A DNA stretch of 51,734 bases from a virus (taxonomy: Duplodnaviria; Caudoviricetes). The stretch covers positions 1 through 51,734 of IMG/VR virus record IMGVR_UViG_3300046778_000197; one strand, 5' to 3'. This document shows positions 12,179 through 45,880 of the stretch, piece by piece; the stretch's first letter is position 1; each line of letters starts with the position of its first letter. The notes under the pieces are model-generated. The model had not been told where the DNA came from, did not search any database, and saw nothing but the letters and a program-made list of their open reading frames with translations. Position numbers and translations under genes: made by a program.

Positions 12179-12179
12179 T

Positions 12180-24436: not shown

Positions 24437-24549
24437 GTGTAATATATATTGAAGAACGTAGTTATGACAAGAAATTTTATTATTCTCTATGAACCCCTTG
24501 GAAGGGCAATTCTGTTTTATAACAGCGTTCTTCAGCATAGGGAATAATT
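24437..24549 (+). ncRNA. Structured leader element copy A (GTGTAATATA promoter plus crossed long stems covering the RBS)
   Basis: 24451-24473 pairs with 24510-24533; 24479-24491 pairs with 24536-24548; internal CCCTTGGAAGGG hairpin. Confidence 0.65.
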
Positions 24550-25938
24550 ATGATATTAAATAAACAAATATTCGATCAGTGTGTTTCTATATATGAAACT
24601 GAACGAATTTCAATAGAAGCCGTAGCTAAAAAACTTTCAATAAAATTTAACGATATATTTTTATCGGCAAGATATTATAAATATCAATTAAGAAAATCTG
24701 GAGAAATTAATAGAGTGACAGACAAAATTACTGAGAGTGAAATAGTTCACGAATATTCAAATGGAATGTCTATAAATAAATTATCTAAATTATTTAATAT
24801 AAGTAATGATACCGTCAATAGAGTATTAAGGGAGAATAATATCGACATGAAACCATTGGGGTTTTTTAATAAAACGGCTATTTTTAATGAAGTAGAACTA
24901 ATTTCTTTGTATAGGAAAGGGCTTAATAATCAAAAGATTGCCAAACTTTTAAATATCTCTGCAAATACGGTAAGATTATTTTTGAAGAAAAATGGATTGA
25001 ATTCTAATTTTCCCAAAATTAATTCTCATAATAGAAAACATAAGAATGCCTTAGAAGATAGAATAATCGAATTATACAGCGAAAATAAAAGTTACTCCCA
25101 AATAGCCAAGATTCTTAATACGAATCATTGTTTAGTGTCAAGGATTATAAGAAAAAATAATTTTATATATAAGAGTCGAGGTAACCGTAGATATGCCTTA
25201 GATGAGAATTATTTTGATCAAATTGATAGCCCGGATAAAGCGTTCATTTTAGGAACAATACTAACCGATGGGTGTAATTCTATAAATTGTGGAAGAAGAG
25301 TCATATGTATAGAATTAAAATCTGATGATAAACCTTTGTTGGAATATATAAATACATGTTTTGGAAGTAATCGTCCCTTATATTATAGGAAGTCTAAAGA
25401 TACCTTTCGATTAAATATTAATAGTAGGATAATTTCTGATGACTTATTGAAATTCGGTTGCACCTGCCCTAAAAGCTTGACGTTGGAATATCCATATTTA
25501 CTAGATGATAAATACTTTGAATATTTTCTGTCCGGGTGTATCTTTGGAGATGGCTGGGTATATAATGAAAATAATTTTTCTGTCGGCCTATCTGGGACTA
25601 AAGATTTACTAGAAAAGATTATGAATAAAATTACAATGAAAACTGGGTTAAAAAACTCAATAACTCCAGAATCTAATTGTAAAACTTTGTTTCGAATTAC
25701 TTTTGGTGGTGATAGTGCAGTTAAAATCTGCAATTTTATTTTTAAAAACGCACCATTCATTATGAAACGAAAATACCTGCCATTTAAAGAATATGTTATG
25801 TCAAAATATAATAATATAGAAGAATTAAGTTTTAACAAACATAGAGATACAATTTTAGAGGCTATAGATATTATTCGCTCAATCGAATCCAATCCTAAAT
25901 TTGCTAATTTATTAGAAATGTCTAATATTAATTCTTGA
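24550..25938 (+). CDS. LAGLIDADG homing endonuclease with multiple N-terminal HTH repeats
   Basis: DENYFDQIDSPDKAFILGTILTDGC and FLSGCIFGDGWV motifs; repeated 'Y..G.S...IAK.LNIS..TV...L' HTHs. Confidence 0.85.
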   Translation: MILNKQIFDQCVSIYETERISIEAVAKKLSIKFNDIFLSARYYKYQLRKSGEINRVTDKITESEIVHEYSNGMSINKLSKLFNISNDTVNRVLRENNIDMKPLGFFNKTAIFNEVELISLYRKGLNNQKIAKLLNISANTVRLFLKKNGLNSNFPKINSHNRKHKNALEDRIIELYSENKSYSQIAKILNTNHCLVSRIIRKNNFIYKSRGNRRYALDENYFDQIDSPDKAFILGTILTDGCNSINCGRRVICIELKSDDKPLLEYINTCFGSNRPLYYRKSKDTFRLNINSRIISDDLLKFGCTCPKSLTLEYPYLLDDKYFEYFLSGCIFGDGWVYNENNFSVGLSGTKDLLEKIMNKITMKTGLKNSITPESNCKTLFRITFGGDSAVKICNFIFKNAPFIMKRKYLPFKEYVMSKYNNIEELSFNKHRDTILEAIDIIRSIESNPKFANLLEMSNINS

Positions 25939-25963
25939 CTTTTTCCCTTAATAACGTTAAAAT
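25935..25963 (+). promoter_or_regulatory. Sigma70-type promoter TTGACT-17-TAAAAT
   Basis: Read directly upstream of the ATG at 25985. Confidence 0.7.
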
Positions 25964-25984
25964 ATTACAGTACAAAAATAAAAT

Positions 25985-26440
25985 ATGACAATACTAGAAG
26001 CTCAAATAAAACTATTATCATGGTTCGCTGAAAACGATACCTTTAATATTGATGAAGACTTAAGTAAAGTTAAGGATAATCCAAAAAATAATCAAGAAAA
26101 AACTGAGGCCGCATTCGGTTGCGCTTTAGATATTTTAGATAAACAAGGATTAATTAAGAAATATGAAAAGGAAATTAATAAGAAAAAATCTTCTACTTGG
26201 GTATTAGAGTCTTCTTTGCAATCATTAACTCAAGAAATCCCTTGCTCAATGAATGTAGCTATTAATATTTCTAATGTTATTAATCAGTCATTAGGATTAA
26301 TCGATGGTAATAATGAAAATAAATCTGACCCCGGAAATCTTGGGGAGGCTGACCTAATTGGTTTATTGACTATTATCGAATTAATGGCCAATAGATTAAA
26401 AGAATTAGAGGGCGGCGAAGAAGGAGGTAAAGATGAGTAA
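25985..26440 (+). CDS. Hypothetical protein (151 aa)
   Basis: Intact ORF after the promoter, overlapping the next gene. Confidence 0.65.
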   Translation: MTILEAQIKLLSWFAENDTFNIDEDLSKVKDNPKNNQEKTEAAFGCALDILDKQGLIKKYEKEINKKKSSTWVLESSLQSLTQEIPCSMNVAINISNVINQSLGLIDGNNENKSDPGNLGEADLIGLLTIIELMANRLKELEGGEEGGKDE

Positions 26441-27053
26441 AGAATTTGATTCTATATTTTTAACTTCGGTCGCGACAGCGGGCAAGGATACTTTATTACT
26501 TATTTTAAAGGATATTTTAGCCGAACATGTTGAGGTCGAAAGAATTTCGTTCGCAGACAATCTTAAAATTTCAGTAAATGAGTTTACTAGAAAAATGTTT
26601 GATATTTCAGCCTTTACTAGAAACGCCAAAGATAAAGAAATGATAAGAGGTATCTTTGTTGAGACCGGCCTTATTAAAAGAATCCAATCTAGAGGAACTT
26701 ATTGGTGGAAGCTTATTCAGCCATTAGTTCAAAAATCTATAGATGAGGGATGTCTTCCAATTGTTTCTGACCTTCGTTACTGCAAGTATGCCGAAGATGA
26801 ACATTTCTTTGCTAAAAATGTCTGTAAGGGTATTATTGTTCATATTACTCGTTTTGATGAATTCGGAAATAAGGTTATTCCCCCAAACGCTCAAGAAATG
26901 GAGAATGACCCAAAATTAGAAGAAATGGCCGACTATAAATTACAATGGCCGACTTCCGATAATAAAGAAGTGTTAAGAAATTTAGTAGAAACTCAACTTA
27001 AAGAATTAATTGATTTAATATGCCAAAAATTCCCAAAAAAGTTACAGAATTAA
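26433..27053 (+). CDS. Deoxynucleoside monophosphate kinase-like protein
   Basis: SVATAGKDT P-loop, RISFADNLK, IVSDLRY; GGAGG RBS. Confidence 0.75.
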   Translation: MSKEFDSIFLTSVATAGKDTLLLILKDILAEHVEVERISFADNLKISVNEFTRKMFDISAFTRNAKDKEMIRGIFVETGLIKRIQSRGTYWWKLIQPLVQKSIDEGCLPIVSDLRYCKYAEDEHFFAKNVCKGIIVHITRFDEFGNKVIPPNAQEMENDPKLEEMADYKLQWPTSDNKEVLRNLVETQLKELIDLICQKFPKKLQN

Positions 27054-27619
27054 GTGACCCGGCCCTGTTGAAATTGGTTCGAAATAATAATTCATCAGAC
27101 GCTTTTCAAGAATTGATGAATCGTCACGAGAAATTATTCTTTGATGTATGCTCTAAATATTCTAAAAAATCTCCTTTAATTAAATATGAAGAAATTATTA
27201 AGGAAAAATATTTTGTTATGGGCGAGGTTATTAAAACTTATAAACAAGGCCGTAAAACCAAATTCTCCACTTGGGTCGGCCATTTTACTAGATTCTTCTG
27301 CCTCAAGAGAATCACTTATTTGGCTAAGAATCACTTAGAAACAGGATTGGAATCAAAAGATTTGGACGTTATTAATCTTAATTTAAATAAATTTGATGAA
27401 TCTACTTATGATGACACTAAGGAACATATCAATAAAATCCTATCTACAATTCCAGATAAAAGAATAAAAAAGATATTCAACTTTAGATATTTTAACGGAC
27501 AAAATGAAACATGGACAGAGATTGCTAAGAAATTAAATATTTCAGCTATGCATACTATCAACCTCCATAATAAAGGTTGTCAATTGCTCAAGAGAGAGTT
27601 TAAGTTATTGAATAATTAA
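27020..27619 (+). CDS. Second phage sigma70-family sigma factor
   Basis: DAFQELMNRH, KTKFSTW (region 2); FRYF..NETWTEIAKKLNIS (region 4 HTH). Confidence 0.8.
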   Translation: MPKIPKKVTELSDPALLKLVRNNNSSDAFQELMNRHEKLFFDVCSKYSKKSPLIKYEEIIKEKYFVMGEVIKTYKQGRKTKFSTWVGHFTRFFCLKRITYLAKNHLETGLESKDLDVINLNLNKFDESTYDDTKEHINKILSTIPDKRIKKIFNFRYFNGQNETWTEIAKKLNISAMHTINLHNKGCQLLKREFKLLNN

Positions 27620-27632
27620 TAGTAAGCACGCT

Positions 27633-27662
27633 AAAAAACCCAAGATTTTATAGTCTTGGGTT
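27633..27662. terminator. Intrinsic terminator between convergent genes
   Basis: AACCCAAGA...TCTTGGGTT stem with an A-run on the left (U-tract for the minus strand). Confidence 0.7.
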
Positions 27663-27684
27663 GATTTTGTTTGTATGTTAGATA

Positions 27685-28296
27685 TTAGAAGTCATCTTCG
27701 TCAGATGACACTGGGAGCTCTTGTTTGGGAGAGATAATTTCTTTAGTAGCTTTCTTCTCTGTCCCTCTAGCAATATTTTCAGAATACCAAGCATTAGAAA
27801 TATGAGATAACCCATTAATCAAGTAATTCTTAAGCAATTCCGTTTCCGCCCAAGTGAAACCGATAGCAATAGAGTCTTTATCTGTCTCGTCTTGCTTATT
27901 AGTCTTAGTGGCGCGAAGTAGGAATCCAGCTTGTTGATTAGTCTTTACCCACTCATTCCCCTTCTTTTCGCTCTTGAAATGAGGTTCGAAAGAAATATTG
28001 GTTGAGAATTTATCTCCATCATGATATACATACTTCGTATTCATGGTTTCGGCTAGGGACATATTCTTATTAATGGCCGCGATAATCCCGGCCACTTCAT
28101 GTGGGGCAAATTTAACGATTACTTTTTTGCCGTCCTTAAAAGTGCCATTCCCAGACTTTTCGTCCCAGCCTACCTGGTGTATCATCTGAAAATAAAACGA
28201 TTTATCGCCCTTCTGACCATCCTTATCGGTTTTGGCGGAGAAGTTAATTGAAATGGCGGAGCCTTTTATGTTTCGGTTAGGTTTATATAATTGCAT
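27685..28296 (-). CDS. Putative ssDNA-binding protein (PC4/Whirly-like)
   Basis: Beta-rich protein with acidic C-terminal tail SSDEDDF, in the replication module. Confidence 0.5.
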   Translation of the reverse strand: MQLYKPNRNIKGSAISINFSAKTDKDGQKGDKSFYFQMIHQVGWDEKSGNGTFKDGKKVIVKFAPHEVAGIIAAINKNMSLAETMNTKYVYHDGDKFSTNISFEPHFKSEKKGNEWVKTNQQAGFLLRATKTNKQDETDKDSIAIGFTWAETELLKNYLINGLSHISNAWYSENIARGTEKKATKEIISPKQELPVSSDEDDF

Positions 28297-28297
28297 A

Positions 28298-29317
28298 TTA
28301 TGTTTTAATCTTATTTATATAATACAACAAGTTAGCGTCCCTGTCAATGATATTATTTATTTGTTTATTATGCTTTCTAGCGACTGAATTATAGGCTTTG
28401 GCTGCTTCGATCTCCGAATTAAAGTATCCCAAATATCTGGATTCACCATTCAGCCTTATAACAGCCGCCCAATTCATAGACTTTTTTGACTTATGGAATG
28501 TTACGCCAAGAAATTTAGATGTCTTATTGTTAAAAAACTTTATAACTCTTTGCTTTCTTGATTCCATTCCTTTGACAAATCTTTTAAACTTTCTACTAAG
28601 AAAAATATTCGCATCTTTGTATATCAAGTGAAAGAATTTATATATATTTTTATTCCCACTAATAATTAATACATGAATCTTGTTATTCGACTTCTTATAT
28701 ATACATGAGGATATGTTATAATCATTTTTTAAAAGTGTTTTTAAAGAATCGCAAAACTCAAATGATGAACATATATCTGCTGATAAATATTTAGTTTTCT
28801 TATCTAAGTAAACTCCACCATCTCCATCAAAGTAGCCTCTAAGGAAATGGTGAATTAGATAATATGGAACCTGTTTTGAAGTAGGAAATTTTAAAGTTAA
28901 AGATTTTCTAGGAAAGCATCCTAATAAAGATAGGTCTTTGGAAAATTTAACTCCGCATATAGACATCCCATACATATGTTGGCGATTTTTGGATATCCTC
29001 CTCCTTAAATGTAGTTTTCTAGAAAACCCTATATCTCTTTTTAATTTTATTAGAATACTTTTATCGGGTTCTTGTAAAAATATATCGAACCCTTTTTCAT
29101 GATTACACCCGTCGGCATATAACAATCCAAGAAAGTATGCCTTGTTTTGACTATCTATTTTCTCAAAATAACTATTATCTTTAGTAATAAAACCTAGATA
29201 TCCCCTGGTTTTAATATTGCATTTTTTGAGAATTTTTCTTATAGTATGAGAGCAAACTTTATAAGAGATAGCTATCTTCTTGGCGGATTCGCCGGATAGA
29301 TATCCGCTCACAAACAT
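28298..29317 (-). CDS. LAGLIDADG homing endonuclease with C-terminal AP2 domain
   Basis: AYFLGLLYADGC, HFLRGYFDGDGG; TSKFLGV...WAAVI...YLGYFNSEIEAAKAYN (AP2). The true start may be a frameshifted TTG at 29351. Confidence 0.88.
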   Translation of the reverse strand: MFVSGYLSGESAKKIAISYKVCSHTIRKILKKCNIKTRGYLGFITKDNSYFEKIDSQNKAYFLGLLYADGCNHEKGFDIFLQEPDKSILIKLKRDIGFSRKLHLRRRISKNRQHMYGMSICGVKFSKDLSLLGCFPRKSLTLKFPTSKQVPYYLIHHFLRGYFDGDGGVYLDKKTKYLSADICSSFEFCDSLKTLLKNDYNISSCIYKKSNNKIHVLIISGNKNIYKFFHLIYKDANIFLSRKFKRFVKGMESRKQRVIKFFNNKTSKFLGVTFHKSKKSMNWAAVIRLNGESRYLGYFNSEIEAAKAYNSVARKHNKQINNIIDRDANLLYYINKIKT

Positions 29318-29352
29318 AAGGATAGTTTAATGTCTCTATCTTTTGATTCAAA

Positions 29353-29541
29353 TTATTTTATAATAAAGGTAGATTTATTGATGCATCTGGAGAATTCTCT
29401 AGAATCTATAGTTTTCCATTTCTTAGAGAATTGATTTAATGTTACTAATTGTTGTGCCTTCTTAATCTTTACCTTGTTATCGTCGGTAACAGAAATTTGC
29501 GCCCAATATTGCGAATTTTTATTTAATTTGTTTTGTTTCAT
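29353..29541 (-). CDS. Hypothetical protein (62 aa)
   Basis: ORF with an upstream TTGACA-17-TACTAT promoter (about 29599-29571). Confidence 0.6.
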   Translation of the reverse strand: MKQNKLNKNSQYWAQISVTDDNKVKIKKAQQLVTLNQFSKKWKTIDSREFSRCINKSTFIIK

Positions 29542-29605
29542 AATTTTTTAAATGTTTTATTTACTTATATATAGTAACTTAGGATAGGGGGGATGTCAAG
29601 GAGTT

Positions 29606-32161
29606 TTAGTTAATATTTTTAAGTTGGGCGGGGGTGTGAGCAATTTTAACGTTCTGGTTAACGATTCTATCACAGAAGATAATATCTTTGCTAGTTCTGC
29701 CGATGGCGCAAACGATATCTCCTATTTGTAATTTACGTCCATTATTCATTTCATCATTTTTCTCAAAATATTTTTCCATTAACATGATATCTGTTTCTCC
29801 CGTTGAATCTGATATTTTAGCTTTGATGTATCTATTATTGTTCTTTGATTTCCCTTCCCTATATTCTAACACTTCTCCTCCAACAGTTACTTTTTGCTCT
29901 GGAAGTTCTGTCTTAGCCTCATAAATACTAACCAAATCATAATATTCTTTCTTTAAGATATTGAATAAATTTTGGGAATATGAATATCCTAAGTACGTTT
30001 TTTCTGCCATGTAATTAGCTAATGGTTCATTTTTGATATTTAGTTTATACATATCATTATAAGGTTTAAAATCCTTCCTTAAAGTTTCTAATCTCGATTC
30101 CTTAATAAATGGTTTAAGTTCAACGTTTTCGGTTTTAGATAATGATTTAACTATAGATACCAAATCATAATTAAATTTCTCACCTAATTGATCTATCAAT
30201 ATCTTTTTTCTTTCTCTGGGAGTCAATTCTTTCCACAGTCCTAACTCTAGCACTGTATAACAGCGACCATTTTTGATAAAATCGTCCATACTACCACTTT
30301 GAATTAAAGACGACATAGAAGTAAAATTGAGGCCGGATTCTAATGCTCCGCTAAATATCTCAAATGGATTTTGAAACTCGTCCTTAAATTCCTGAAGTTT
30401 ATTAATAGCTTTCTCCCCCAATCCTTTAAGATTCCCAAGACCAAAACGAATTCCATTTTTTTCAATTGTAAAATCGGTTTCGGATTTAAGGATATTTGGA
30501 CTCAATAATTCTATCCCCATTTGTTTTAACTCTGAGAAAATTTGCCCAATTAATTCATTACTATTAGGTTTTTCTTTCACTTCATTCAAACATGCCCAAT
30601 AAAATTCTAATGGATATTTATATTTTAAATAGACAGTTAAAGCGGTAAGGTAAGAAGTGCTTACGGAATGGGCCAAATTAAATTGATAATTTGCGGAATC
30701 ACCAATTAATTTAAGCAAAAACTTTGTGATGTCTTCTGATAATCCTTTTCTCTTAATATTTGAATTGATTTTATCAACCCACTCTTTAATTTCATCAGTT
30801 TTCTTTTTCGCCGCAACACGTCTAAATTGTTCACTTTCGTCATCTGAAAAACCCAATGCCTTTACCAACATAATTGTTTGTTCTTGGTATAAGGGTAGAT
30901 TTCTTGTCCAGTTTAATGCTGATTCGAAAATCGGGTGAGGGCATTCTGCTGAATTATCAATATAAGGTTTTTCGTAAGCCAAGGCTGTAGGACGAGCAAT
31001 TGCGTTAACATGGCTAAGTTCCAATACATTTTTTGGCTTCAAATGTTTACAAACTTTATAGGCTCAATCAGCGGATATCTGATATAATCCATATGGTAAC
31101 AAATTATCTGATTGTAATTTATCATATATAAACTTGTCATCATGTAAATTTATATCTTCTACTTTTTCTGGAATCCTAGATAAAATATTTTTAATTATTC
31201 TATTAGTATCCAAAGATAATAAATCAAGTTTAAGACATTGAACATCGCCCATGATATATGATGACATTTGCTCTCTTTCTTTATTGAGCATAGCCGGAGT
31301 GTGATTATCTAACTCATCAAAACTAACTAAATATCCAGATGCATGGCATCCAAAAGAGGTATTTAAATGCCTTAATTTTAAGGATATCTCGTAAGTTTCT
31401 TTATGATCCTCTACCCATTTTTCGAATTCTTTATTTTCTTTTTTGACTTCTTCGATATCTTGAACAACACCGAATCTTCTTTCTATTAAATCCGCGACAT
31501 CTTTGGCCTCATCTTCCGAAACCTCTTCTAAGCATTTGTATACATCTTTTATAAGGATTTTGCCGGTTAAGGTGGAAACATTTGCCACCTTGGATATTCT
31601 GTTTGGATATATTTGTTTAAGCCATTCTACTATCTCGTCTCTTCCTTCCGCAAGGTTTATGTCAATATCCGGTGCGAGGTCTATTGAAATCCATGTTTCA
31701 TTATCAATTATTTTTGATTTTGCCCTAGCTTTTGATACGAAACGAGAGAAAAATAGGTTATAATATATGGGATCGCAACCCGTTATATCGGTTAGCCACG
31801 CGACCAAACTCGAACCAACACTACCACGACCAAAATCCATAAACATCCCCATTGATTTAGCCTTATTAATAACCGTCCATACTAATAGTATGTAATCTGT
31901 GAATCCTAACTCCTTAAATGTTGATAATTCTAACTTTAATCTATTTTCATATTCCTCAACTCTATCTTTATTGATTTTTCCAGACTGAATTTTTGAATTT
32001 AATCCTAAAATACATATTTTTTCAAGGAAGACATAATTATTATCATTTTCATTACATCCAAATTTAAGTTTTTCTTCTATAGAAATGGGCGGTTTTGGTA
32101 ATCTTGTGTAACCAAAATTAGGAAGGGTATATTTTTGAAAATTATCGGTAAAGTTAATCAT
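29606..32161 (-). CDS. dnaE: DNA polymerase III alpha (DnaE-type) core, interrupted by one in-frame TGA at 31064-31066
   Basis: GRGSVGSSLV, APDIDIN, GCHASG, KLDLLSL, YQEQ, FNLAHS, YLKYKYPLEF, IRFGL and a C-terminal OB fold. The two track ORFs share a frame: YQISAD*AYKVCKHLKPKNVLEL. Confidence 0.88.
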
Positions 32162-32805
32162 TCTAAATCTATTTTTTTAATCAATTCAAAGAAAATTCTG
32201 GCCGTCACCCTTGAATCAAAAAGCCCCCCATGGAACATTTCCGTTTCCCCGCCCATATCAATGTTAAATTCTTTTGACATATACTGTAAGTTACTTTTTA
32301 AGCCCTTTTGAATTAAGTTATTACATCCAAGTTGGTAGGATAATAGATTGTTATTATCAACTTTACGCCCTAATTTATAGCCCTTGAATAATGCATTTAT
32401 ATCATAACATCTATGTAGCCATTTATAGCCACATTCTATTCCAACTTCCTTACAAGAATTATGTAAAACCATGCAATCATAGTTCAATCCATTAGAAAAC
32501 ACAATCTTGTAGTTATCATCCAATAAATAAGAGAGAATCTCATTAAATGCCTGTTTTGGAGTAGCTACTATCTCATTTATTTTTTTTAAATCATAGTGAG
32601 TGATTTTTGCAATTTCGGGGCGAATCTTATAATTAGGATAGTTAACGAAAATCTGTCTTTCTTTTACTAAATCATATCCATTATAAATAACATAAGAAAT
32701 TTCAAATGGTCGCGTATAATTCAAATGTAAGGAGTTTGATTCAATATCCCAAAAGATTAGTTTTTTATCTTTAAGGTTAAATCTTAATAAATTATCTCCT
32801 AACAT
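32158..32805 (-). CDS. DEDDh 3'-5' exonuclease (DnaQ-like proofreading subunit)
   Basis: WDIES (ExoI), NGLNYD (ExoII), HGGLFD (ExoIII); ATGA overlap with the dnaE core. Confidence 0.85.
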   Translation of the reverse strand: MLGDNLLRFNLKDKKLIFWDIESNSLHLNYTRPFEISYVIYNGYDLVKERQIFVNYPNYKIRPEIAKITHYDLKKINEIVATPKQAFNEILSYLLDDNYKIVFSNGLNYDCMVLHNSCKEVGIECGYKWLHRCYDINALFKGYKLGRKVDNNNLLSYQLGCNNLIQKGLKSNLQYMSKEFNIDMGGETEMFHGGLFDSRVTARIFFELIKKIDLE

Positions 32806-32806
32806 A

Positions 32807-33949: not shown

Positions 33950-34001
33950 GTATTTATATATATTATGTCTTTGTCATCATTATTTACACTAAAAATCACT
34001 T

Positions 34002-35843: not shown

Positions 35844-35850
35844 TCTTTAT

Positions 35851-36324: not shown

Positions 36325-36335
36325 GTTTTTTTATT

Positions 36336-37518: not shown

Positions 37519-37560
37519 CAGATACCAACAATTTTACTATAAAACAATAAATAGTCAAGT

Positions 37561-38283
37561 TTAAAAAGAAAAAGATTCTTTATAATGATTTAACATTTTA
37601 ATTATATCTTCTTGCATATCTGGAATTTTATGAGAATCTATCTGTCTTGTTTCGGGATTTATGTGAAATAAAGTAATTTTTTTCACTTTATAACCATGGT
37701 ACTCTAACATATATTTATATAAATTTAACTGTAATCCATAATTAGACATTTCACAGTCTCCTAAATAATCAACTGGGGGTAATAGCTTCCCACCATACTT
37801 CGGTTTATATAGAATCTCTTTATTCGTCTTCCAGTCCATTAAATTTAGATTCCCTTTGCCCAAATCTTCTATTAAGTCAGCCGTTCCAGCAAGCCAATAA
37901 GGTTCTCGTAAATGCAATGGTATTTCGCAATATAGTTTTCCTTTAATTTTTGGAAGAAATTTTTCCTTAAATATTAAAACTACATCTTCATAATCATCTT
38001 TAAGAATTTCATTATTTTTAAGAAAATGCTCTATTTGTCTATGGAATGATTTGCCACGTTTTAATCCATCGTATTTAGCTTTGTCCCATTTTTCCGTTAC
38101 TTCAGATACGCTTAAATTATTCTTTTCAGCATATTTTCTCTTTATAAATCCCGATGGGTCAAATTTTGATTTAAACAACGATAAAAATACAGATACAGAC
38201 AATAACCCCTGTTCTTTGAAGTGATATGTGTGAGGTTCCTCTTTAAATAGGATTTCTTTGTTGATATCTTCTAGTTTAATCAT
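37561..38283 (-). CDS. PD-(D/E)XK exonuclease (phage exonuclease-like)
   Basis: HTY...SVS...RGKSFH...AGTADL...MDWKT...YGLQLNLYKYML. Confidence 0.8.
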   Translation of the reverse strand: MIKLEDINKEILFKEEPHTYHFKEQGLLSVSVFLSLFKSKFDPSGFIKRKYAEKNNLSVSEVTEKWDKAKYDGLKRGKSFHRQIEHFLKNNEILKDDYEDVVLIFKEKFLPKIKGKLYCEIPLHLREPYWLAGTADLIEDLGKGNLNLMDWKTNKEILYKPKYGGKLLPPVDYLGDCEMSNYGLQLNLYKYMLEYHGYKVKKITLFHINPETRQIDSHKIPDMQEDIIKMLNHYKESFSF

Positions 38284-38295
38284 TTATGGTTTTAT

Positions 38296-38664
38296 TTATG
38301 TCTGGGAATCTCCGGGTAAAATTCTATAGGAATCTTCTTCATAATGAGTTGTCGAAACTTCCAAGATAATAGAATCCTCTAAAGCTTCTAACTGATGCGG
38401 AAATCCAATTGGTATATCTACACAATCGCCAGTTTTTAAATCGGTCGTAAGGTCTTGTCCATTTGATAGATTTTTATATCTTAAAATAAATGACCCAGAT
38501 AAGACCGCCCAAGATTCGTCCTTTAATAAGTGGAAATGATTAGAAAACTTTGCTCCTTTATTAAATTTTAGCAATTTTCCGCAATATCTATCATTATTAA
38601 CTATCCATTCTTCCGATCCCCATTTTTTAGGGTGAATTTCAGTAGTTCTAATTTCAAATTTCAT
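38296..38664 (-). CDS. Cupin-fold protein (sugar isomerase-like)
   Basis: KKWGSEEWIVN..YCGK...SNHFHLLKDE...PHQL...EVST.H. Confidence 0.8.
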   Translation of the reverse strand: MKFEIRTTEIHPKKWGSEEWIVNNDRYCGKLLKFNKGAKFSNHFHLLKDESWAVLSGSFILRYKNLSNGQDLTTDLKTGDCVDIPIGFPHQLEALEDSIILEVSTTHYEEDSYRILPGDSQT

Positions 38665-39097
38665 ATTTTTCTGGACTATTTAAATAATCTATATAGATAT
38701 CACAATGACACCTAACTTCATGGCTAGAGTTTTTACAAAAACATCCTAATACTTTATTTTTTAGACTCTGTATATTTTTCTTAAATTCTACGTCTTTATT
38801 TATTCTATCTTTAAAATAAATAATAAAACTATCTATTGAAGAATCTCTATTATGGACACAATCGCAAATTTTACAGAAACCTATTGGATGTGGATTTCCA
38901 TAATAACCAGATTGTCCTTTTCCGGGTCGTCCACAATAAATATCATATGTTTGGCCAGATTTAATATTTACTACTTTTAGTTTGCATTCTCCATTCCTAT
39001 GTTTATTGATATCTTCTATACTAAAATGATCTGTATAATATTTATTACAGTTTTTACATCTATAAACCTCTGCATTATTCTCGTCATGAACACTCAT
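38654..39097 (-). CDS. DUF4326-family protein
   Basis: YDIYCGR...YGNP...LKNKVLGCFC...CHCD. Confidence 0.75.
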   Translation of the reverse strand: MSVHDENNAEVYRCKNCNKYYTDHFSIEDINKHRNGECKLKVVNIKSGQTYDIYCGRPGKGQSGYYGNPHPIGFCKICDCVHNRDSSIDSFIIYFKDRINKDVEFKKNIQSLKNKVLGCFCKNSSHEVRCHCDIYIDYLNSPEKYEI

Positions 39098-39100
39098 ATT

Positions 39101-40588
39101 TTATAAATCAACGTCTTGATTTCCATGGCCATCTTGTAAATTTCTATTTAATAATTGTTTATTTACTATATCTTTATATGTTCCAACCTCGCGAATCAAA
39201 TAATTTTCGATGTTATAATTGATGAAGTTTTGCTTGCTGACCGTCTTGCCTTTAATATCCTTAACCCTTACGATATTATTCATATTATAGTTATCTTTGC
39301 CTTGACAACGACTTGTTTTAAAGGGTTTTAACATATGCGTCCCAAATTCTGTTCCAAATTCAGTAATTTCTTCGAATGTCTTCTTTCTGAAGACGGCATT
39401 GAAAGCGGCATACTGATTAATTCTATCTGACGCCCCCGCCGTCGTAGAGTCGTCTATCCTTTGACCGTTTTGTTCTGCCGACCTATTTTGTTGACCCGCG
39501 CTCAAGATAGGAATATTTAATTGATAGCCAATTTCATTTAAGTAACAAACCTTATCCCCTAGTTGTTGCCATTCCTGTCTATTTTTTTCAGAGTCGCCAG
39601 TTATCTTTATGTAATCATAGACCACCAAAGCCTTACCGTTGCGACCAACGTTTTTATGATACCATTTTCTTATAACAGATAAAACTTCCCAGATGTCCAT
39701 ATTAGGAACGTACTTATGATAAAATTTGCCAGATAATTCTTTGAATTTAGGGAATGAATCTTGAACTTTCTTGGCCAATTCTTGATTCTTTGTCCAATTA
39801 CCGGTTTCTAAATACCACGCATTAATTCCGGCCTCTGCCGCTGATGCTCTAATCATATTCAAATCTAGCGACATCTCAGTATCCAGATATAGAACCGGAA
39901 CGTTGTTAATTTTAGCTATCCCTTTTGCCATATTAAAAAGAAAACACGATTTTCCTTCCTGACTTCTTGAGATGACGTTCCAAATTCCATTTCTTGAAGT
40001 TATTCCACCAAAATATCTATTGAAATAATCATAAGGAGTTTTCAGTCCAGATTCTTCGACCGGATTCTTCGCAATCTCTAAAATGTATTCTTCAATTTTA
40101 GCAAATAAATCGGTCGGCTCTTCATCTCCAACATATTGTTTAATTTGACTATTATAAATTTTATCCACGCCGCCAATTAAATCGGAAAGAGATTTTGACC
40201 CGTTTTCAAGGACATATTTCTTAACATCTTCCGCGTTTTCGGTCAACTCTCTTCTTACTCTTAATTTAGTTAATTCTTTCGCGGCCTCAATTAATCCTTT
40301 TTCAGTTATCTGAGTAAAAGTAATATCGTCAATATATTGAAAAATAGGAATATCATGGATTTTATCTAAGCCTATTTCTTTAACTTTTTGGGCAACGATA
40401 ATTGGGTCGATTGTTCCTTGATTAGTTAGGATTTGTTTGATTATTGAGAAGATTTTACCGTGAAGCGGCTCTTTGAAATCATTTTCAGTAATAAATCCAT
40501 CTAGTTGATAATAAACATCTGATTTTTTGATTAGACCCCCAATAAAGGCCCTCTCAAGATTTAGAGACCACAATGAGTTTTGATTCAT
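39101..40588 (-). CDS. dnaB: Replicative DnaB-like helicase
   Basis: SRSQEGKS Walker A, VLYLDTEM, VVYDYIK, QQNR, ASDRI. Confidence 0.88.
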   Translation of the reverse strand: MNQNSLWSLNLERAFIGGLIKKSDVYYQLDGFITENDFKEPLHGKIFSIIKQILTNQGTIDPIIVAQKVKEIGLDKIHDIPIFQYIDDITFTQITEKGLIEAAKELTKLRVRRELTENAEDVKKYVLENGSKSLSDLIGGVDKIYNSQIKQYVGDEEPTDLFAKIEEYILEIAKNPVEESGLKTPYDYFNRYFGGITSRNGIWNVISRSQEGKSCFLFNMAKGIAKINNVPVLYLDTEMSLDLNMIRASAAEAGINAWYLETGNWTKNQELAKKVQDSFPKFKELSGKFYHKYVPNMDIWEVLSVIRKWYHKNVGRNGKALVVYDYIKITGDSEKNRQEWQQLGDKVCYLNEIGYQLNIPILSAGQQNRSAEQNGQRIDDSTTAGASDRINQYAAFNAVFRKKTFEEITEFGTEFGTHMLKPFKTSRCQGKDNYNMNNIVRVKDIKGKTVSKQNFINYNIENYLIREVGTYKDIVNKQLLNRNLQDGHGNQDVDL

Positions 40589-40629
40589 GCTTATTACTAT
40601 TACGTACTATACTTTGAAAGTCAATATTT

Positions 40630-40863
40630 TTATAAATATCTAATTTCTAATTCTCCAGAATATTTTAAATTATCCACTGAGAATCCTTTGATGTTGATTC
40701 CAAAACTTATATACTGTGCGGTCGGGAATCTATCTATGAAATTAGGTTCATAAATATCATTATTCTTAGACATGTATAAATTAAATATACCGTGTTGTGT
40801 ATTAAATTCTAAACATCTTTCATTGATTGTGTATCTATATATTTTGGTTTTAAAAGTTTTCAA
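40630..40863 (-). CDS. Hypothetical protein (77 aa)
   Basis: ATGA overlap with the upstream gene. Confidence 0.55.
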   Translation of the reverse strand: MKTFKTKIYRYTINERCLEFNTQHGIFNLYMSKNNDIYEPNFIDRFPTAQYISFGINIKGFSVDNLKYSGELEIRYL

Positions 40864-41279
40864 ATTAAATTGACTCCAAATTTATTATATATATAGTCTA
40901 AAGATAAAAATGGCAAGTCGCATTCTTGAATTTCGATAACTTTAAACCCATTCTGCTCGGCCCACTCAAGTTTATAAATATCTGATTTTATAGATTTTAA
41001 ATATCCGGCGCGGGTTTTGTGAAAAAAGGGATTATAGTTCCCATGATGGGATATGGGGCTATATTCAACTATTGTGCGTGAATTAACATCAACCAAATCG
41101 AAACGCCAGAGTGTTCCTGGGACACGCATTTCTCGAAGTATTAGACGTGTTTTCCAGTAAGGAAACAAAAAGTCTTGCAAAATCTGTTGACCTTTGGACG
41201 GGGCAGAATTCCAGTCAATCTTATACTTTTTTATATCGATTGATATAATTTTATCAGATTTGTATTTTTTGACTTTCAC
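40860..41279 (-). CDS. Vsr/DUF559-like endonuclease-fold protein
   Basis: EMRVPGT.WRFDL...VEY..ISHH...DIYKLEWAEQNGFKVIEI. Confidence 0.65.
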   Translation of the reverse strand: MKVKKYKSDKIISIDIKKYKIDWNSAPSKGQQILQDFLFPYWKTRLILREMRVPGTLWRFDLVDVNSRTIVEYSPISHHGNYNPFFHKTRAGYLKSIKSDIYKLEWAEQNGFKVIEIQECDLPFLSLDYIYNKFGVNLI

Positions 41280-41342
41280 GTATGTATTTTAAGGGATTTT
41301 ATAGTAAAAGTAAAGATTAATTTTAATAATGGAGGGAAATAG

Positions 41343-41461
41343 GTGTAATATATAGTGAATGTTAGATTGTTGCGCGAAATTCACTTTATTGTCCTTTATG
41401 AACGTTTTAGAAACGTCTTCGGAGCAAAACTCTAGCATTCAGCATAAAGGATAATTAATAT
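41343..41461 (+). ncRNA. Structured leader element copy B
   Basis: GTGTAATATA; 41357-41378 pairs with 41418-41440; 41388-41400 pairs with 41443-41455 (contains the AAGGA RBS); internal CGTTT-TAG-AAACG hairpin. Confidence 0.65.
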
Positions 41462-42553
41462 ATGAAGTCTAAAAAGCCCAATAAATTATCAATAGAACAA
41501 GAATTAGAAGTAATTAAAATATATCAGGAGCAAACAATATCGGCTGAAAATGTTGGTAAAATGTATGGAGTTTCAGAGCGTCCAATTCTAGCAATTCTAA
41601 AAAGACATAATATTCATAGGAAAAATACCTATGAACATATGGGTCATAAGTTCAGCAAAGAGGATATTAATATAATTATTGATGATTATAAAAATGGAAT
41701 TACACAAAAAGTTATTGGGGATAGATATGGAGTTTGCAGAAAAGTTATAAGAAAATTATTGACCAAAAATGGAATTAAAGTTAGAAATACCCAAGATAAT
41801 AGAATAATTAAAAAGGAGTATATTCCTGAAATTGTTAGACTTTATGTGGAAGAAGGTTGGTCTTCTGGAAAAATTGCAAAAATGTATAAGGTAACACACG
41901 GCTCTATACTTCCTATTTTATGGGAAAATAATGTTAAAATGCGATTATCTGGCGAGGGAGGAAAACTATTTAATAGAGAAGAGGAATTAAAAATTTGTAA
42001 AATATATACATCTAAAAATATTTCTTTGTTAGAATTAGGTGAATTATTTGGATGCACTCAAGGTCCTATTAAGAGGGTTTTGGTAAGTTACGGGATAGTA
42101 ATACGATATTTATCCTCGTCTATCTATAGATACAATGGCGGCTGGGGAATATCTGGATTTTATAATGGATATCATTTCAGAAGTATTAATGAATTATCTT
42201 TTATTATAAATTATTTAGAAAAAAAAAATATAAAATTTAAAAGCGGCGAATCGAATCTTGGTATAAAGTATTATCACTCTGGAATGCACAAGATTAGAAG
42301 ATATTATCCAGATTTTATTACCGACAAATACATGTTCGAGAATAAGCCAAAGTGTTTTTGGCATACAATTGAAAACGTAGAGAAGTCTAATTCGGCTAAA
42401 GAATATTGTAAATTACATAATTTGATATATCAATTCGTAGATTACCCAGTAATATTGAGTCCGATATTAGAAAGATATTTTTCTGGGCAAATTTCTTTTA
42501 GCAAAAAAAGTTTAGAGAAATTTAGAAGAATTTATAAAAAATATTTAGTCTGA
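41462..42553 (+). CDS. HTH-repeat protein with C-terminal TnsA-like PD-(D/E)XK endonuclease domain
   Basis: Four ~53-aa HTH repeats, then GISGFYNGYHFRSINE...RRYYPDF...ENKP. Antisense to the surrounding operon. Confidence 0.75.
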   Translation: MKSKKPNKLSIEQELEVIKIYQEQTISAENVGKMYGVSERPILAILKRHNIHRKNTYEHMGHKFSKEDINIIIDDYKNGITQKVIGDRYGVCRKVIRKLLTKNGIKVRNTQDNRIIKKEYIPEIVRLYVEEGWSSGKIAKMYKVTHGSILPILWENNVKMRLSGEGGKLFNREEELKICKIYTSKNISLLELGELFGCTQGPIKRVLVSYGIVIRYLSSSIYRYNGGWGISGFYNGYHFRSINELSFIINYLEKKNIKFKSGESNLGIKYYHSGMHKIRRYYPDFITDKYMFENKPKCFWHTIENVEKSNSAKEYCKLHNLIYQFVDYPVILSPILERYFSGQISFSKKSLEKFRRIYKKYLV

Positions 42554-43702
42554 CAATACTGACCTAAATTTGTCAAATAAGAATTTTGTTACTTCGGGTT
42601 TTGATTCTAGATATTCTATCACTCTATCGGAGCTTCTAAATTTTTCTGGAATTTCCGCGTCTATTTTTCTTAAGTCATTTAATAGTGTCGTATCTAAATT
42701 TAAAGACCCTTGAGACGACTCTCTTTTAAGAAACGACCAACCTAATAATTGATCTAATATATCTCTTTCAATAAATATAGAATTTCCTCCCTCGCGCCCA
42801 TATTTGACACTATATTCAAATTTGACATCATATTTTTCATTATCAGATTTTCTTATCATTCCTTTTATGACGTGGCCAATTTTATTATTTTTTTTCGGGT
42901 CATATTTAAGATTTGGATCTTCTAACAGATAGTCTCCTTCATATCTTGTCGCAAAGTCAAGAACTAAAGATGCTTGATATTGAATATTTGTACCGCCACT
43001 CGATCCGCCTTGTCTTAATGGATCCTTACTATATGGATCTATTTTAGGAGCGGCAGACTGTTGAGATATTGCTAAAAATATATGCTGTCCAGCATTAAAT
43101 GGAAGAGCTAATTTCGACCATAGCATCTTAGTTAAATATTGCGCTCCTGCAATTTTTCTAGTTTCTCCAAATTCCTTTGACATGTCAGACTCTAAACAAA
43201 GATAGTCCATGCAGTCAATCATGATAATAAAGTTCTCTCTATCTTCTGGCTTGTGCATTTCATTAGTCTTTACCAGTGTCCAAATAAAATTGGCGATTTT
43301 CTCATAAAGATTCATCGGTAAAATTAGACAACTTTTATTGGTCCAGTTCTCTGGATTTTCAACGAAATTAATACCAGAGCGAGATTTTAATTTTTCTGTA
43401 AGGCGCGCTTCAGTTGGTATTATCAATGCTCTACATTTTGGACGAGATTCTAAGAAATTCTTGATAATTAAAAGACCCTCTGAACTTTTTCCAGAAGTCG
43501 GTGGACCGAGCAGTCTCGCCAAAATCCCCGAAGAAATGCCTCCTTCTAAAATCTGGTCGAGGGAAAATACACCAGTTGAAACCTTAAATGGTTCCGACAC
43601 TTCTGTATAAATATTGTTTTTATTGCTCCTATAAAACGATTCAGCCGCCATCTTTACAGAATCTACGACTTCATCTTCTTTTGTTTTCTTGTCTTTTGCC
43701 AT
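42545..43702 (-). CDS. recA: RecA/UvsX-like recombinase
   Basis: STGVFSLDQILEGG, GPPTSGKSS, IMIDC, AISQ, SSGGTNIQY. Confidence 0.85.
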   Translation of the reverse strand: MAKDKKTKEDEVVDSVKMAAESFYRSNKNNIYTEVSEPFKVSTGVFSLDQILEGGISSGILARLLGPPTSGKSSEGLLIIKNFLESRPKCRALIIPTEARLTEKLKSRSGINFVENPENWTNKSCLILPMNLYEKIANFIWTLVKTNEMHKPEDRENFIIMIDCMDYLCLESDMSKEFGETRKIAGAQYLTKMLWSKLALPFNAGQHIFLAISQQSAAPKIDPYSKDPLRQGGSSGGTNIQYQASLVLDFATRYEGDYLLEDPNLKYDPKKNNKIGHVIKGMIRKSDNEKYDVKFEYSVKYGREGGNSIFIERDILDQLLGWSFLKRESSQGSLNLDTTLLNDLRKIDAEIPEKFRSSDRVIEYLESKPEVTKFLFDKFRSVLSD

Positions 43703-43725
43703 AAATTTTTCTTTGTTATATAATA

Positions 43726-44004
43726 CTAAATTTTTTCTTGTTTTTCGTTATATTCTTTAGTGATTCTATCAAATTCTTCTTTAGATAATTGGCCGGAACA
43801 TATATAAATATCTGGATTATAGTTTTTATAATAATTTCCACTTATAATATTTTGGCTTCTAATCGGAATATCTTTTTGTTCTATAATTTTTATTTTCTTA
43901 TTGTAATTACTCAAATCAGTTTTGCCGTATTTATCTTTAGATAGATTATCTATTTCTCGTTGAGGAGAAAAGAAGGAGTGTATTTTATTTATTAAGTTAT
44001 TCAT
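43726..44004 (-). CDS. Hypothetical protein (92 aa)
   Basis: ORF in the operon. Confidence 0.5.
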   Translation of the reverse strand: MNNLINKIHSFFSPQREIDNLSKDKYGKTDLSNYNKKIKIIEQKDIPIRSQNIISGNYYKNYNPDIYICSGQLSKEEFDRITKEYNEKQEKI

Positions 44005-44090
44005 ATTTTTTGGCGGATAGAGGTATTTTCACAAAACCAATTAAGTATTTAACCCAATCACTAGGATTCCTAGCTTCTATCCATAAAATT

Positions 44091-44459
44091 TCAATTATCC
44101 ACAAATTCTAATATATTCTTTGGTTTTTTCTTTATATTTTTAATCTCTATAATTGGGGCAGAATCTAAAATAAATGTTTCTTTTTTATTCATAGATTTGG
44201 CCGCGAGGTAGAGTTGGTATTCGTCTTGCAATCTTTTATTATGTATTTCATTTAAAAAAACACATAAAGAATCAAATTTCACCACGCCCAATGAAAATTC
44301 GCGCCAGAATTCAATTTCTGGAAACTGTGATAATAATTTACTGGAAATCTTTACCTCCGCGCCCCAATTAATTTTAACATCAGAATTAATAAACATTTTG
44401 ATTAACTCTTTGGCATTCTCAAATTTAATATTAATTTTTCTTGTCTTTACCTCTTTCAT
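44091..44459 (-). CDS. Hypothetical protein (122 aa)
   Basis: ORF at the head of the minus-strand operon. Confidence 0.6.
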   Translation of the reverse strand: MKEVKTRKINIKFENAKELIKMFINSDVKINWGAEVKISSKLLSQFPEIEFWREFSLGVVKFDSLCVFLNEIHNKRLQDEYQLYLAAKSMNKKETFILDSAPIIEIKNIKKKPKNILEFVDN

Positions 44460-44477
44460 AGGTTAATATAGAAGTAT

Positions 44478-44714
44478 ATGTCTAAACCTATCAAAAGTCA
44501 AATTAAAAATAATTACGAATTTCTCTTTGAAATTGGCCAAAAAGTTAAAATTAAGGATTTAAATATTTCTGGGGTAATTTGCGGAATCTATATTAGCAGA
44601 AACGAAATTGAGTATTCGGTAAGATATTTTTATGACGGAAATCCTAAGTCGGTATATTTTGGACAGTCAGAGATAGAATTGGTAGATGATAAGGATGTTT
44701 TGGGCTTTAAATAA
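44478..44714 (+). CDS. Small SH3/KOW-like hypothetical protein (78 aa)
   Basis: FEIGQKVKIK...GVI...EYSVRY pattern; followed by a terminator. Confidence 0.6.
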   Translation: MSKPIKSQIKNNYEFLFEIGQKVKIKDLNISGVICGIYISRNEIEYSVRYFYDGNPKSVYFGQSEIELVDDKDVLGFK

Positions 44715-44737
44715 AGTACATTAATATAATAAATTTG

Positions 44738-44771
44738 ATAGGCTAATCTGTAATAGGGTTAGTCTATTTTT
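44738..44771 (+). terminator. Intrinsic terminator
   Basis: ATAGGCTAATCT-GTAAT-AGGGTTAGTCTAT stem followed by a T-run. Confidence 0.7.
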
Positions 44772-44894
44772 CTGTACCGTGCTTGCAAGAGACGTTTATT
44801 GGAAAGTTTACTAATCTAAATAATTATCATTTATATGTGGATCAAGTTAATGAATAATATTTAATTCTGGCCCGAAATCTTCCTAATTCTACGA

Positions 44895-45070
44895 GATTAA
44901 TCCTACGTTTCACTTCGGATTGTCGCTTCGCTCCTAATAATTCGAAGATTCTTTTAAATCACGACCGAAGAATTTTCGATGATTGAGTGATTATACGAAG
45001 TATTGTCGTACGGAACCGTACGATTCTACGAAGAAATCCTTCACTTCGTTCGGATGAGCTACGCTCAAAA
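44895..45070. other. Cluster of GNA-loop mini-hairpins; candidate replication origin/priming region
   Basis: GCGAAGC (minus, 44925-44931), ATACGAAGTAT (44993-45003), TCGTACGG-AA-CCGTACGA (45006-45023), ACGAAGT (minus, 45043-45049), GAGCGTAGCTC (minus, 45056-45066). Confidence 0.45.
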
Positions 45071-45074
45071 ACGA

Positions 45075-45532
45075 TGTGTTATATGTAATATCCTTAGAAA
45101 TCTATGTACGCATTTCACCCCTATAAAATTAGTATTTTGACATACCAACTTATAGGAGATGAATATACTATGTTTTAATCCTTGAGTCCCTAAATTAATC
45201 CTAAAAGGAAGGAAGAAGGGTATTCCTGCATTATAACTGGTAAGCTATATAGTCATTTAATAGGACTGTTCCTAAACCTATCCAGACCGCTTCTGGACGA
45301 CTAATCACCTTGTATTGCTACAAAACTCCGGGTGGGAATAATATATTTCTATATTATAATTTTATTGCTGTGGTGTTTATAGAGTAGCGACATATTCCTT
45401 CTCGGAATACATTTCCGGCTAAAACTGTTATCAGAATATATTGGAATATATACCCTTTCAAACCACTGTATGATAGCCCGCCCCGCTCTTTTTAAATTTA
45501 ATGTTTCTGTTTACGTCTTGTTCATTTTATTT
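45075..45532 (-). ncRNA. Candidate large structured non-coding RNA
   Basis: No ORF in the track; downstream of a consensus promoter; several stems whose G-U wobbles work on the minus strand; GCAA tetraloop hairpin; one long-range helix. Ends approximate. Confidence 0.5.
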
Positions 45533-45538
45533 AAAATG

Positions 45539-45566
45539 ATTATACTGTACAAATTTTCTTTGTCAA
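45539..45566 (-). promoter_or_regulatory. Sigma70 promoter TTGACA-16-TATAAT
   Basis: Both hexamers are perfect consensus on the minus strand and point into non-coding DNA. Confidence 0.75.
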
Positions 45567-45580
45567 TAAGATTTTAGAGA

Positions 45581-45701
45581 AAACCTCTCTTATGCTGCAA
45601 AACAGCTTACAAAGGCGGGATATCATTCTTCATGACCCATAAGAAAGGTTTAAAATACTTCTTATATTACTATTGTATCTATTTTGCATATTAATTTACT
45701 C
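45581..45701 (-). ncRNA. Structured element copy C (orphan)
   Basis: 45670-45688 pairs with 45596-45614; 45638-45651 pairs with 45581-45594; internal hairpin at 45622-45636. Confidence 0.6.
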
Positions 45702-45758
45702 TATATATTTTATACTGTGATGAAAAATCTTAACTTTCAATTGCTATTTTTATCATAA

Positions 45759-45880
45759 AAACCTTTTTCATGGTACGAAAACAGCTTTTGAGGCAAGAAT
45801 GTCCTTCCAAGGGACTCATGAAAGAGGTTTAAAATCTCTTTATTATACCTAATCGGCTATTTTCGTATAATAATTTACAT
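45759..45880 (-). ncRNA. Structured element copy D (orphan; tandem with C, 178 bp offset)
   Basis: 45843-45867 pairs with 45774-45799; 45817-45830 pairs with 45759-45772; internal hairpin GTCCCTTGGAAGGAC shares CCCTTGGAAGG with copy A. Confidence 0.6.

Follow-up and report, generated by a model that had tools for sequence, protein, structure and literature searches.

A small family of crossed-helix leaders at free-standing homing-type nuclease genes of uncultured phages

Four elements of the window and their genes

The window, that is, the whole 51,734-nt stretch of phage DNA analysed here, carries four copies (A-D) of an element of about 100 bases. Element A (24450..24548, plus strand) lies behind a GTGTAA motif (24437..24442, plus strand), predicted to be a phage late promoter with a transcript start at 24451, and comprises P1a (24450-24467), P2a (24479-24491), P3 (24493-24507), P1b (24517-24534) and P2b (24536-24548), which ends 1 nt before the ATG of a 462-aa HTH-repeat LAGLIDADG nuclease (24550..25938, plus strand; PF14528, E 5e-6; phrog_4645, E 7e-46). 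Element B (41356..41455, plus strand; outer P1a 41356-41366, P2a 41388-41400, P3 41402-41416, outer P1b 41431-41441, P2b 41443-41455), with its GTGTAA motif at 41343..41348 (plus strand), heads a gene for a 363-aa HTH-repeat, TnsA-like PD-(D/E)XK nuclease (41462..42553, plus strand). On the minus strand, element C (45581..45688; P2a 45651-45638, P3 45636-45622, P2b 45594-45581) follows a GAGTAA motif (45696..45701) and has no ORF behind it, and element D (45759..45867; P2a 45830-45817, P3 45815-45801, P2b 45772-45759) follows an ATGTAA motif (45875..45880) and is itself followed by an ATG and an 8-codon stub (45730..45756).

The order of parts is P1a, a linker, P2a ending in YATG, a hairpin, P1b, a short joint and P2b starting with CAT, so that P1 and P2 cross. 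P2 has 13-14 bp in the four window copies and 10-14 bp across the family; the outer P1 has 10-12 bp, with 5-7 bp more inside, in the window copies, and P1 extends to 14-20 nt across the family. The third helix, P3, has 4 bp and a 7-nt loop with an RGAA end. Direct inspection of the sequence confirmed the positions and the common architecture that an earlier note on this DNA had given for the four loci, as well as the stretch CCCTTGGAAGG common to A and D; the (G/T)GTAA motif that it had placed before every copy is found before A, B and D, but not before C, where the motif is GAGTAA.

The crossed-helix leader is a real, small family to which the four window copies belong, with nine distinct copies spread over four genome groups of uncultured phages. 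Five of the nine head intact nuclease genes (one LAGLIDADG, one TnsA-like and three GIY-YIG), three head stubs, of which the D and L186 stubs agree with the N-termini of nucleases and the third is unassigned, and one (C) heads nothing. The common factor of the partners is that they are free-standing homing-type nucleases; a link to HTH repeats, proposed earlier from A and B, does not hold, since the three further intact partners are GIY-YIG nucleases, two of them with NUMOD3 repeats. On its own sequence the B nuclease gives only a weak TnsA-like match (PF08722, E 0.013), although PF08722 is found in five of 14 homologues and PD..ExK is invariant. The leader is likely to be a portable unit of such genes in three unrelated families, as judged from the sequences. 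It accompanies one of seven LAGLIDADG_3 matches, none of five HNH_3 matches and three of four GIY-YIG matches, and is absent from the 24 loci examined for distant nucleases of the A and B types. The B cassette is missing from the same flanking-gene gap in all three relatives (G001, G002, G003), and the element forms the left end of the inserted cassette. The flanks of A are non-syntenic in G001 and G003.

An OMEGA-like RNA that guides or partners the nuclease would suit a pseudoknotted element of about 100 nt whose place is always immediately 5' of its nuclease gene. The partners of OMEGA/HEARO guide RNAs are IscB, IsrB, TnpB or Fanzor, unlike the LAGLIDADG, TnsA-like and GIY-YIG partners found here. 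These LAGLIDADG, PD-(D/E)XK and GIY-YIG proteins have DNA-binding repeats of their own and no common domain, neither end of the element holds a variable guide segment, and close relatives of the nucleases manage without the element, all of which makes a guide function very improbable.

In our reading, the nuclease has decayed in the cassettes at D, L165, L186 and C. D is 92% identical to the L001 copy, which heads an intact 290-aa GIY-YIG gene, and the first seven residues of the stub after D equal the start of that ORF. Thus, of the two copies earlier regarded as orphans, C indeed heads no ORF, whereas D is the relic of a GIY-YIG cassette that is intact in the relative L001. With its upstream flank, C is identical to D at 106 of 160 nt, and at 63% identity to D it keeps 14/14 P2 and 10/10 outer P1 pairs. 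Full pairing in C and in L165 without a real ORF behind them would be expected of a stable small RNA with its own job (decoy or scaffold), of which these two copies would be the free-standing form. Such an RNA would have a paired 5' base and then A-(G/C)-C-A, and C together with its downstream junction recurs, with one difference in 151 nt, on one low-depth contig of another study. We nevertheless consider a small RNA unlikely: the pairing of C is explained by recent loss, no terminator-like site was seen after C, eight of the nine copies end right at an ATG and the stubs at D and L186 resemble nuclease N-termini.

Pairing, strand and extent of the family

The earlier observation that pairing is kept through compensatory changes was upheld for P1 and P2 and extends to P3. 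In P2 and P3, 97.8% of 134 cells are paired, with both-side changes in 12 of 15 pairs; none of 500 shuffles reached this level, and slid controls gave 39-63%. The first seven pairs of P1 are formed in all nine copies with four pair types, and RNAalifold, unaided, recovers the same helices. The family for all counts comprises nine copies only, some found through pairing- or promoter-based filters, and copy counts overstate the independent events because D and L001 (92% identical) and L166 and L186 (74%) are related. Model R1, by which L166 and L203 were found, used neither P1 nor promoter spacing, and L186 was found without any use of internal pairing. For P0122, an orthologue whose called N-terminus is the translated element, a change from U-A to C-G at one P2 pair is implied, as deduced from the protein alone. 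An upstream ORF starting at the RTG of P2a was ruled out, as P0122 implies ACG at that place.

Among 189 cells, G-U outnumbers A-C on the sense strand (11 vs 3), which favours an RNA of that strand. This speaks against a DNA hairpin that would form the end of a mobile cassette, comparable with NTS/Ssn repeats, a reading with which the location at the left end of the inserted cassette would agree. As the helices are crossed, the spacing to the promoter-like motif and the ATG is fixed and no matching right-end structure was seen, such a DNA hairpin has hardly any probability.

A two-stem descriptor gave exactly four matches in the window versus one in 20 Markov controls of equal size, a comparison that is partly circular since the descriptor was drawn from the same four copies. 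Of 51 descriptor matches in related phage DNA (1.55 Mb), the best five were the four window copies and the L001 copy. In a first pattern scan none of 24 loci showed both stems. One of four matches of a second pattern scan was true, again on the L001 contig; a metagenome pattern scan gave two true matches in 27, both identical to the L001 copy, and a further scan five in 18 (three distinct), the other 13 arising by chance. The descriptor found no copy at 80 loci of distant members of the phage group, taken around a glycosyltransferase of 42-49% identity. Model R1 gave only three weak matches (E 0.026-0.047, 17-19 bits), which were not accepted, over 34 and 44 whole records, and model R3, which in a separate run recovers all its training copies, gave 0/50 matches among the distant members. 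Searches of GenBank phages returned no match for A and only noise for C and D.

Rfam 15 had no match at gathering score in the window and, with E values up to 5-10 allowed, none over the C, D, L001, L166, L186 and L203 copies, so that the element is uncatalogued there; ARAGORN also gave no match. A tRNA mimic, considered on account of an anticodon-like loop and A-C-C-A after P1 in 3/9 copies, was rejected, the arm order being unlike that of tRNA. No earlier description of the leader was found in the openly searchable literature, subscription journals lying outside this scope; the main text of PMC5737381 contains neither 'endonuclease' nor 'LAGLIDADG', and its supplement might list a related motif. 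The covariation, the lack of an Rfam match, the cover over the initiation region and the nuclease partners together support the earlier proposal of an uncatalogued structured RNA that appears to move with mobile nucleases.

Promoter-like motif, start codon and a possible translational brake

The element starts 8 nt behind the GTGTAA-like motif in each copy, the motif lying 12-13 nt before P1a in 9/9. GTGTAA is 14.5-fold enriched before ORFs in the phage group of the window. In ordinary genes the commonest distance from motif to ATG is 8-9 nt (G003, 12 of 35 motif matches), and it is 8-10 nt in 9/20 in G082; this ordinary distance equals that from the motif to the first covarying P1 base. The motif is likely to be a phage late promoter. 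No internal promoter was seen at a common place within the family copies, and seven of the nine copies are arranged back to back with the gene upstream of them; a longer transcript reading through the element is therefore not expected. At the other end, P2b stops 1-4 nt before an ATG in 8/9 copies; the cover over the initiation region first noticed in A and B is thus common to most of the family. Shine-Dalgarno 4-mers are rare in these phages (3/48 ORFs of the window), and these 4-mers may not be those of the host.

The covarying helices, the fixed spacing to the motif and to the ATG and the nuclease partners suggest a portable translational brake, to which we assign a probability of about 0.6. 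Transcription would begin with the first base of P1 that is paired. The earliest helices to fold would be P1 and P3, which would keep P2a, the anti-initiation strand, within a loop, so that the initiation region (P2b) would be free for a short time on emerging. P2 would then close over it, either atop P1 as a pseudoknot or in place of P1, and its closure would limit each late transcript to a brief burst of toxic nuclease. Computed folding of the nascent RNA forms P1 in all nine copies, and in six of them the computed energies of the folds with P1 only and with P2 only differ by no more than 3 kcal/mol. In D and L001 the computed P1 fold is favoured by 8-10 kcal/mol. The P1 state of D, L001 and A is also compatible with a local hairpin between P2b and the start codon, so that the supposedly open state may in fact be closed; both observations count against this reading. 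Also counting against it are the fully paired C and L165 without an ORF, the many nuclease genes without the element and the rarity of Shine-Dalgarno 4-mers.

Several features that are conserved though unpaired are left unexplained by a plain timer, namely a U run 5' of P2a, the Y-K-N-R-G-A-A loop (Y-U-N-R in 8/9 copies, GAA in 9/9), UUC 3' of P3 and the joint between P1b and P2b, which is 2 nt only, A plus G or C in all nine copies. A CsrA-type motif, a GGA loop, was ruled out by AGA in 4/9 loops. The conserved bases would fit a gated switch, in which the formation of P2 would be decided by a protein, antisense RNA or metabolite of phage or host that binds the P3 loop or the P1/P2/P3 junction; the near-equal energies of the two folds agree with it, and one leader before three unrelated nucleases suits a common outside regulator, self-binding by the nuclease being unlikely because the partners have no common domain. 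However, only 14 of 120 columns are invariant, about half of them in stems or the promoter region, the conserved bases could be tertiary contacts and no Rfam riboswitch matched; we regard the gated switch as possible, with odds well below even. Equally tentative is a new class of gated RNA switch, an interchangeable leader exchanged among three unrelated nuclease families, whose P3 loop would read one common phage or host signal and license all homing nucleases of the phage at one time, ORF-less copies such as C serving as decoys for the factor concerned.

Relation to known systems and significance

Several T-even homing endonuclease genes (I-TevI, I-TevII, I-TevIII, segB and Aeh1 mobE) carry RBS-sequestering hairpins, and the late promoter is placed so that late transcripts lack the single hairpin (PMC2988022). 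The leader resembles them in standing directly before a homing nuclease gene, pairing with the initiation region and being tied to a late promoter (here a promoter-like motif), probably likewise to keep a toxic nuclease in check. Unlike the T4 type, it has three covarying helices, with P1 and P2 crossed, and its motif precedes the whole structure with no common internal promoter, so release must work in another way. The leader would thus work like the RBS-hiding hairpins of T4, but differs from them in its crossed stems and in a promoter-like motif outside the structure.

Another precedent is the 5' UTR of the MS2/Levivirus maturation gene (PMC4615214). There a complementary strand upstream, set apart by folded arms, reaches the initiation region late and pairs with it, giving a kinetic translation window for a protein of which little is wanted. 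That system is a cloverleaf of an RNA phage without sequence or structure homology to the leader; in the leader, the putative delaying helix crosses the repressing one. The T4 gene 32 leader pseudoknot is likewise linked to translational repression in a phage, but is located 67 nt upstream, where it nucleates the binding of gp32 without pairing to the initiation region (PMC3014915), whereas P2 of the leader covers that region.

The HDV ribozyme has a 7-nt L3 and the helix order of the leader. A self-cleaving ribozyme related to HDV-like ribozymes would share the strand order P1a-P2a-P3-P1b-P2b and the 7-nt P3 loop, and HDV-like/theta ribozymes also occur in phages (PMC10879173). However, J4/2 with its catalytic cytosine, as defined there, has no room in the 2-nt P1b/P2b gap of the leader, nor do P1.1 and P4, and the long P1 and a P2 over the start region differ from those ribozymes. 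The predicted transcript start leaves nothing cleavable 5' of P1, and no Rfam ribozyme matched; self-cleavage thus seems highly implausible. For both the ribozyme and the nuclease-partner readings of the earlier note, the features open to testing, J4/2 and the type of partner, appear to be lacking.

Homing nucleases must be made, yet they are toxic to their own phage. To our knowledge one solution has been worked out, that of T4, in which a hairpin is bypassed by a late promoter. In the family described here the brake seems to be present on the entire transcript, so that release would call for a different principle, which could be the kinetics of folding or a further factor. The leader would be a self-contained 100-nt unit reused by three nuclease families, and may mark dead nuclease cassettes in phage genomes; as a timer or switch with crossed helices that occurs in nature, it could be useful in RNA design.

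Copies of the leader and conservation of its helices

The four copies of the crossed-stem leader in the window (A, B, C and D) each carry an outer helix P1 of 10-12 bp, a crossing helix P2 of 13-14 bp and a hairpin, P3, between P2a and P1b, as the earlier note had proposed. The window is a complete virus record of 51.7 kb with 32% G+C, its sequence is best represented in freshwater metagenomes, and its genes include terminase, DnaE, DnaB, RecA-like, ribonucleotide reductase and two phage sigma-like genes (17962-18657 and 27020-27619), along with several free-standing nuclease genes. The glycosyltransferase at 22467-24372 is present as two overlapping ORFs (a single ORF in the related phage G001) and DnaE at 29606-32161 as two ORFs with 22 nt between them; frameshifts, recoding or assembly errors are candidate explanations.

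A descriptor built from A-D retrieved exactly these four copies in the window, with one match in 20 Markov controls; in 1.55 Mb of DNA from related phages, A-D and a copy in L001, a syntenic close relative, ranked as the top five of 51 matches. The L001 copy was found by a hairpin pattern. Two copies, L165 and L166, were identified in G001 using a sequence-free descriptor and R1, a model of P2 and P3 only; L186 was found without any internal pairing by a looser pattern, of which 5 of 18 loci were true, and L203 by running R1 on the record of L186. The nine distinct copies thus obtained have pairwise identities mostly of 43-63% and come from four genome groups: the window, G002, G001/G084 and G082/G083. 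The family seems narrow, since descriptor and model searches found no copy in the remoter members of the phage group or in distant nuclease relatives.

Over the nine copies, 97.8% of 134 P2 and P3 cells are paired, with both sides changed in 12 of 15 pairs, a level reached by none of 500 shuffles (slid controls, 39-63%), although kinship among the copies, and the use of pairing to find some of them, make such statistics lean high. The compensatory pairing noted previously is thus upheld in the larger alignment, and RNAalifold also recovers P2 and P3. The first seven pairs of P1 are kept in all nine copies; P1 and promoter spacing played no part in finding L166 and L203. With L001 omitted as nearly identical to D, the other eight copies allow 40320 partner permutations, of which 1 reached the observed pairing for P1, 2 for P2 and 4 for P3. 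G-U outnumbers A-C by 11 to 3 in 189 cells, pointing to the sense strand. P3 always has 4 bp and its 7-nt loop ends in RGAA, a U run stands before P2a and the P1b-P2b joint is A plus G or C. The called N-terminal extension of P0122, an orthologue of nuclease A, is a translation of the element, and two changes at its paired ATG/CAT positions imply, as read from the protein, a probable U-A to C-G swap.

Rfam searches with the window and with the C, D, L001, L166, L186 and L203 copies returned no family matching the element, a result that the earlier note had named as one on which novelty depends, and a prior description was not found in the literature search. On the sequence evidence, the element is judged to be a real and undescribed RNA family.

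Promoter-like motif and initiation region

The motif GTGTAA is enriched 14.5-fold before ORFs of these phages (window, G001, G003 and G082), many of which encode structural proteins, and is frequently separated from an ATG by 8-9 nt; it probably serves as a phage late promoter, many of whose transcripts would be leaderless. Its distance to the first covarying P1 base equals that to the ATG of ordinary genes, so that the transcript likely begins with P1. As P2b ends 1-4 nt before the ATG in eight of nine copies, the element would fill the whole predicted leader. Purines dominate P2b, and AGG occurs there in 8/9 copies, but Shine-Dalgarno 4-mers are rare (3/48 window ORFs), and initiation region is a safer term for it than the earlier ribosome-binding site. 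In three copies the paired CAT is changed to CAC or CGC along with P2a while the start codon is still ATG; the conserved partner is therefore P2a and not the start codon.

Nuclease partners and history of D and C

A precedes a LAGLIDADG nuclease and B a PD-(D/E)XK nuclease, while L166 (directly) and L203 precede GIY-YIG/NUMOD3 genes, L165 an 8-codon stub and L186 a 44-aa stub that resembles the repeat at the N-terminus of one of the window's LAGLIDADG genes. HTH repeats, formerly proposed as the shared feature, do not account for the GIY-YIG partners; what the partners share is that they are free-standing nucleases of homing type, each with a probable promoter of its own. The leader is optional for such nucleases, being present in 3/4 GIY-YIG, 1/7 LAGLIDADG_3 and 0/5 HNH_3 matches in five records. 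A guide or nuclease-partner RNA, also suggested, fails as an explanation, the partners being three ordinary protein-guided nuclease families.

Cassette B (41280-42544) is absent between the same two genes in all three relatives having both, and in seven of nine copies the element and the upstream gene are arranged back to back. The RecA-like gene beside cassette B (42545-43702) shows 29% identity to that of the close relative G002 and 70% to that of G001, a distant one. Near D, the glycosyltransferase (46381-47502) is 39% identical to that of G002, most neighbours showing 75-82%; allele exchange driven by the nucleases is possible.

D is no orphan as previously supposed: the L001 copy, 92% identical to it, heads an intact GIY-YIG ORF of 290 aa, and the 8-codon stub behind D opens with the same seven residues as this ORF. 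Where the relative has 848 nt of the ORF, the window has 158 nt containing C, and C plus flank matches D at 106 of 160 nt. Together these point to D as a relic of a GIY-YIG cassette and to C as a sister cassette that has diverged and sits in the same place. The minus-strand stretch at 44948-45491, directly downstream of C, lacks any ORF of 60 aa over about 500 nt and follows a sigma70 promoter match of 12/12 at 45566-45539; it is 91% identical in G002, has a folding z of -2.9 and no Rfam match, and is a candidate non-coding RNA or origin.

Another leader, without an Rfam match, precedes distant A-type nucleases of other phages in L144, L145, L146 and L149 (about 5850-5985, just before the LAGLIDADG ORF); there the Shine-Dalgarno sequence is paired with the loop of a hairpin, the same logic in a different architecture. 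L144 also carries five group I intron matches in 3.4 kb (8993-12386).

Possible action on translation

In T-even phages, as outlined in PMC2988022 and PMC3014915, a hairpin conceals the homing nuclease genes' ribosome-binding site and a late promoter gives transcripts lacking that hairpin. Here, in contrast, the promoter-like motif lies ahead of the entire structure and a search for an internal promoter common to the copies found none, so that the brake would be present on every transcript. In 9/9 copies the nascent RNA is predicted to fold into P1, which is finished before synthesis of P2b, and P1-only and P2-only folds differ by at most 3 kcal/mol in six of nine. These features favour a delayed-closure brake on nuclease translation, in which P1 and P3 would fold first on the nascent transcript, the initiation region would be free for a brief interval and P2 would close last over it. 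The initiation region of the MS2 maturation leader is likewise briefly free and then closed, according to PMC4615214. Were P1 and P2 to form together, geometry suggests that they would have to be placed side by side, a coaxial stack being hardly within reach of linkers of 5-9 and 11-21 nt.

Several features do not fit such a timer: in A, D and L001, P2b can form local hairpins that include the ATG, D and L001 prefer P1 by 8-10 kcal/mol, some conserved unpaired bases would be needless, and C and L165, without a nuclease ORF, keep intact pairing. The same features keep alive a switch gated by a factor, which is nevertheless considered unlikely beside delayed closure. An HDV-like ribozyme, among the options of the earlier note, fails, as the element lacks the J4/2 junction described in PMC10879173.

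The window contributes four copies, the LAGLIDADG and PD-(D/E)XK partners, the empty-site comparison and the history of D and C.
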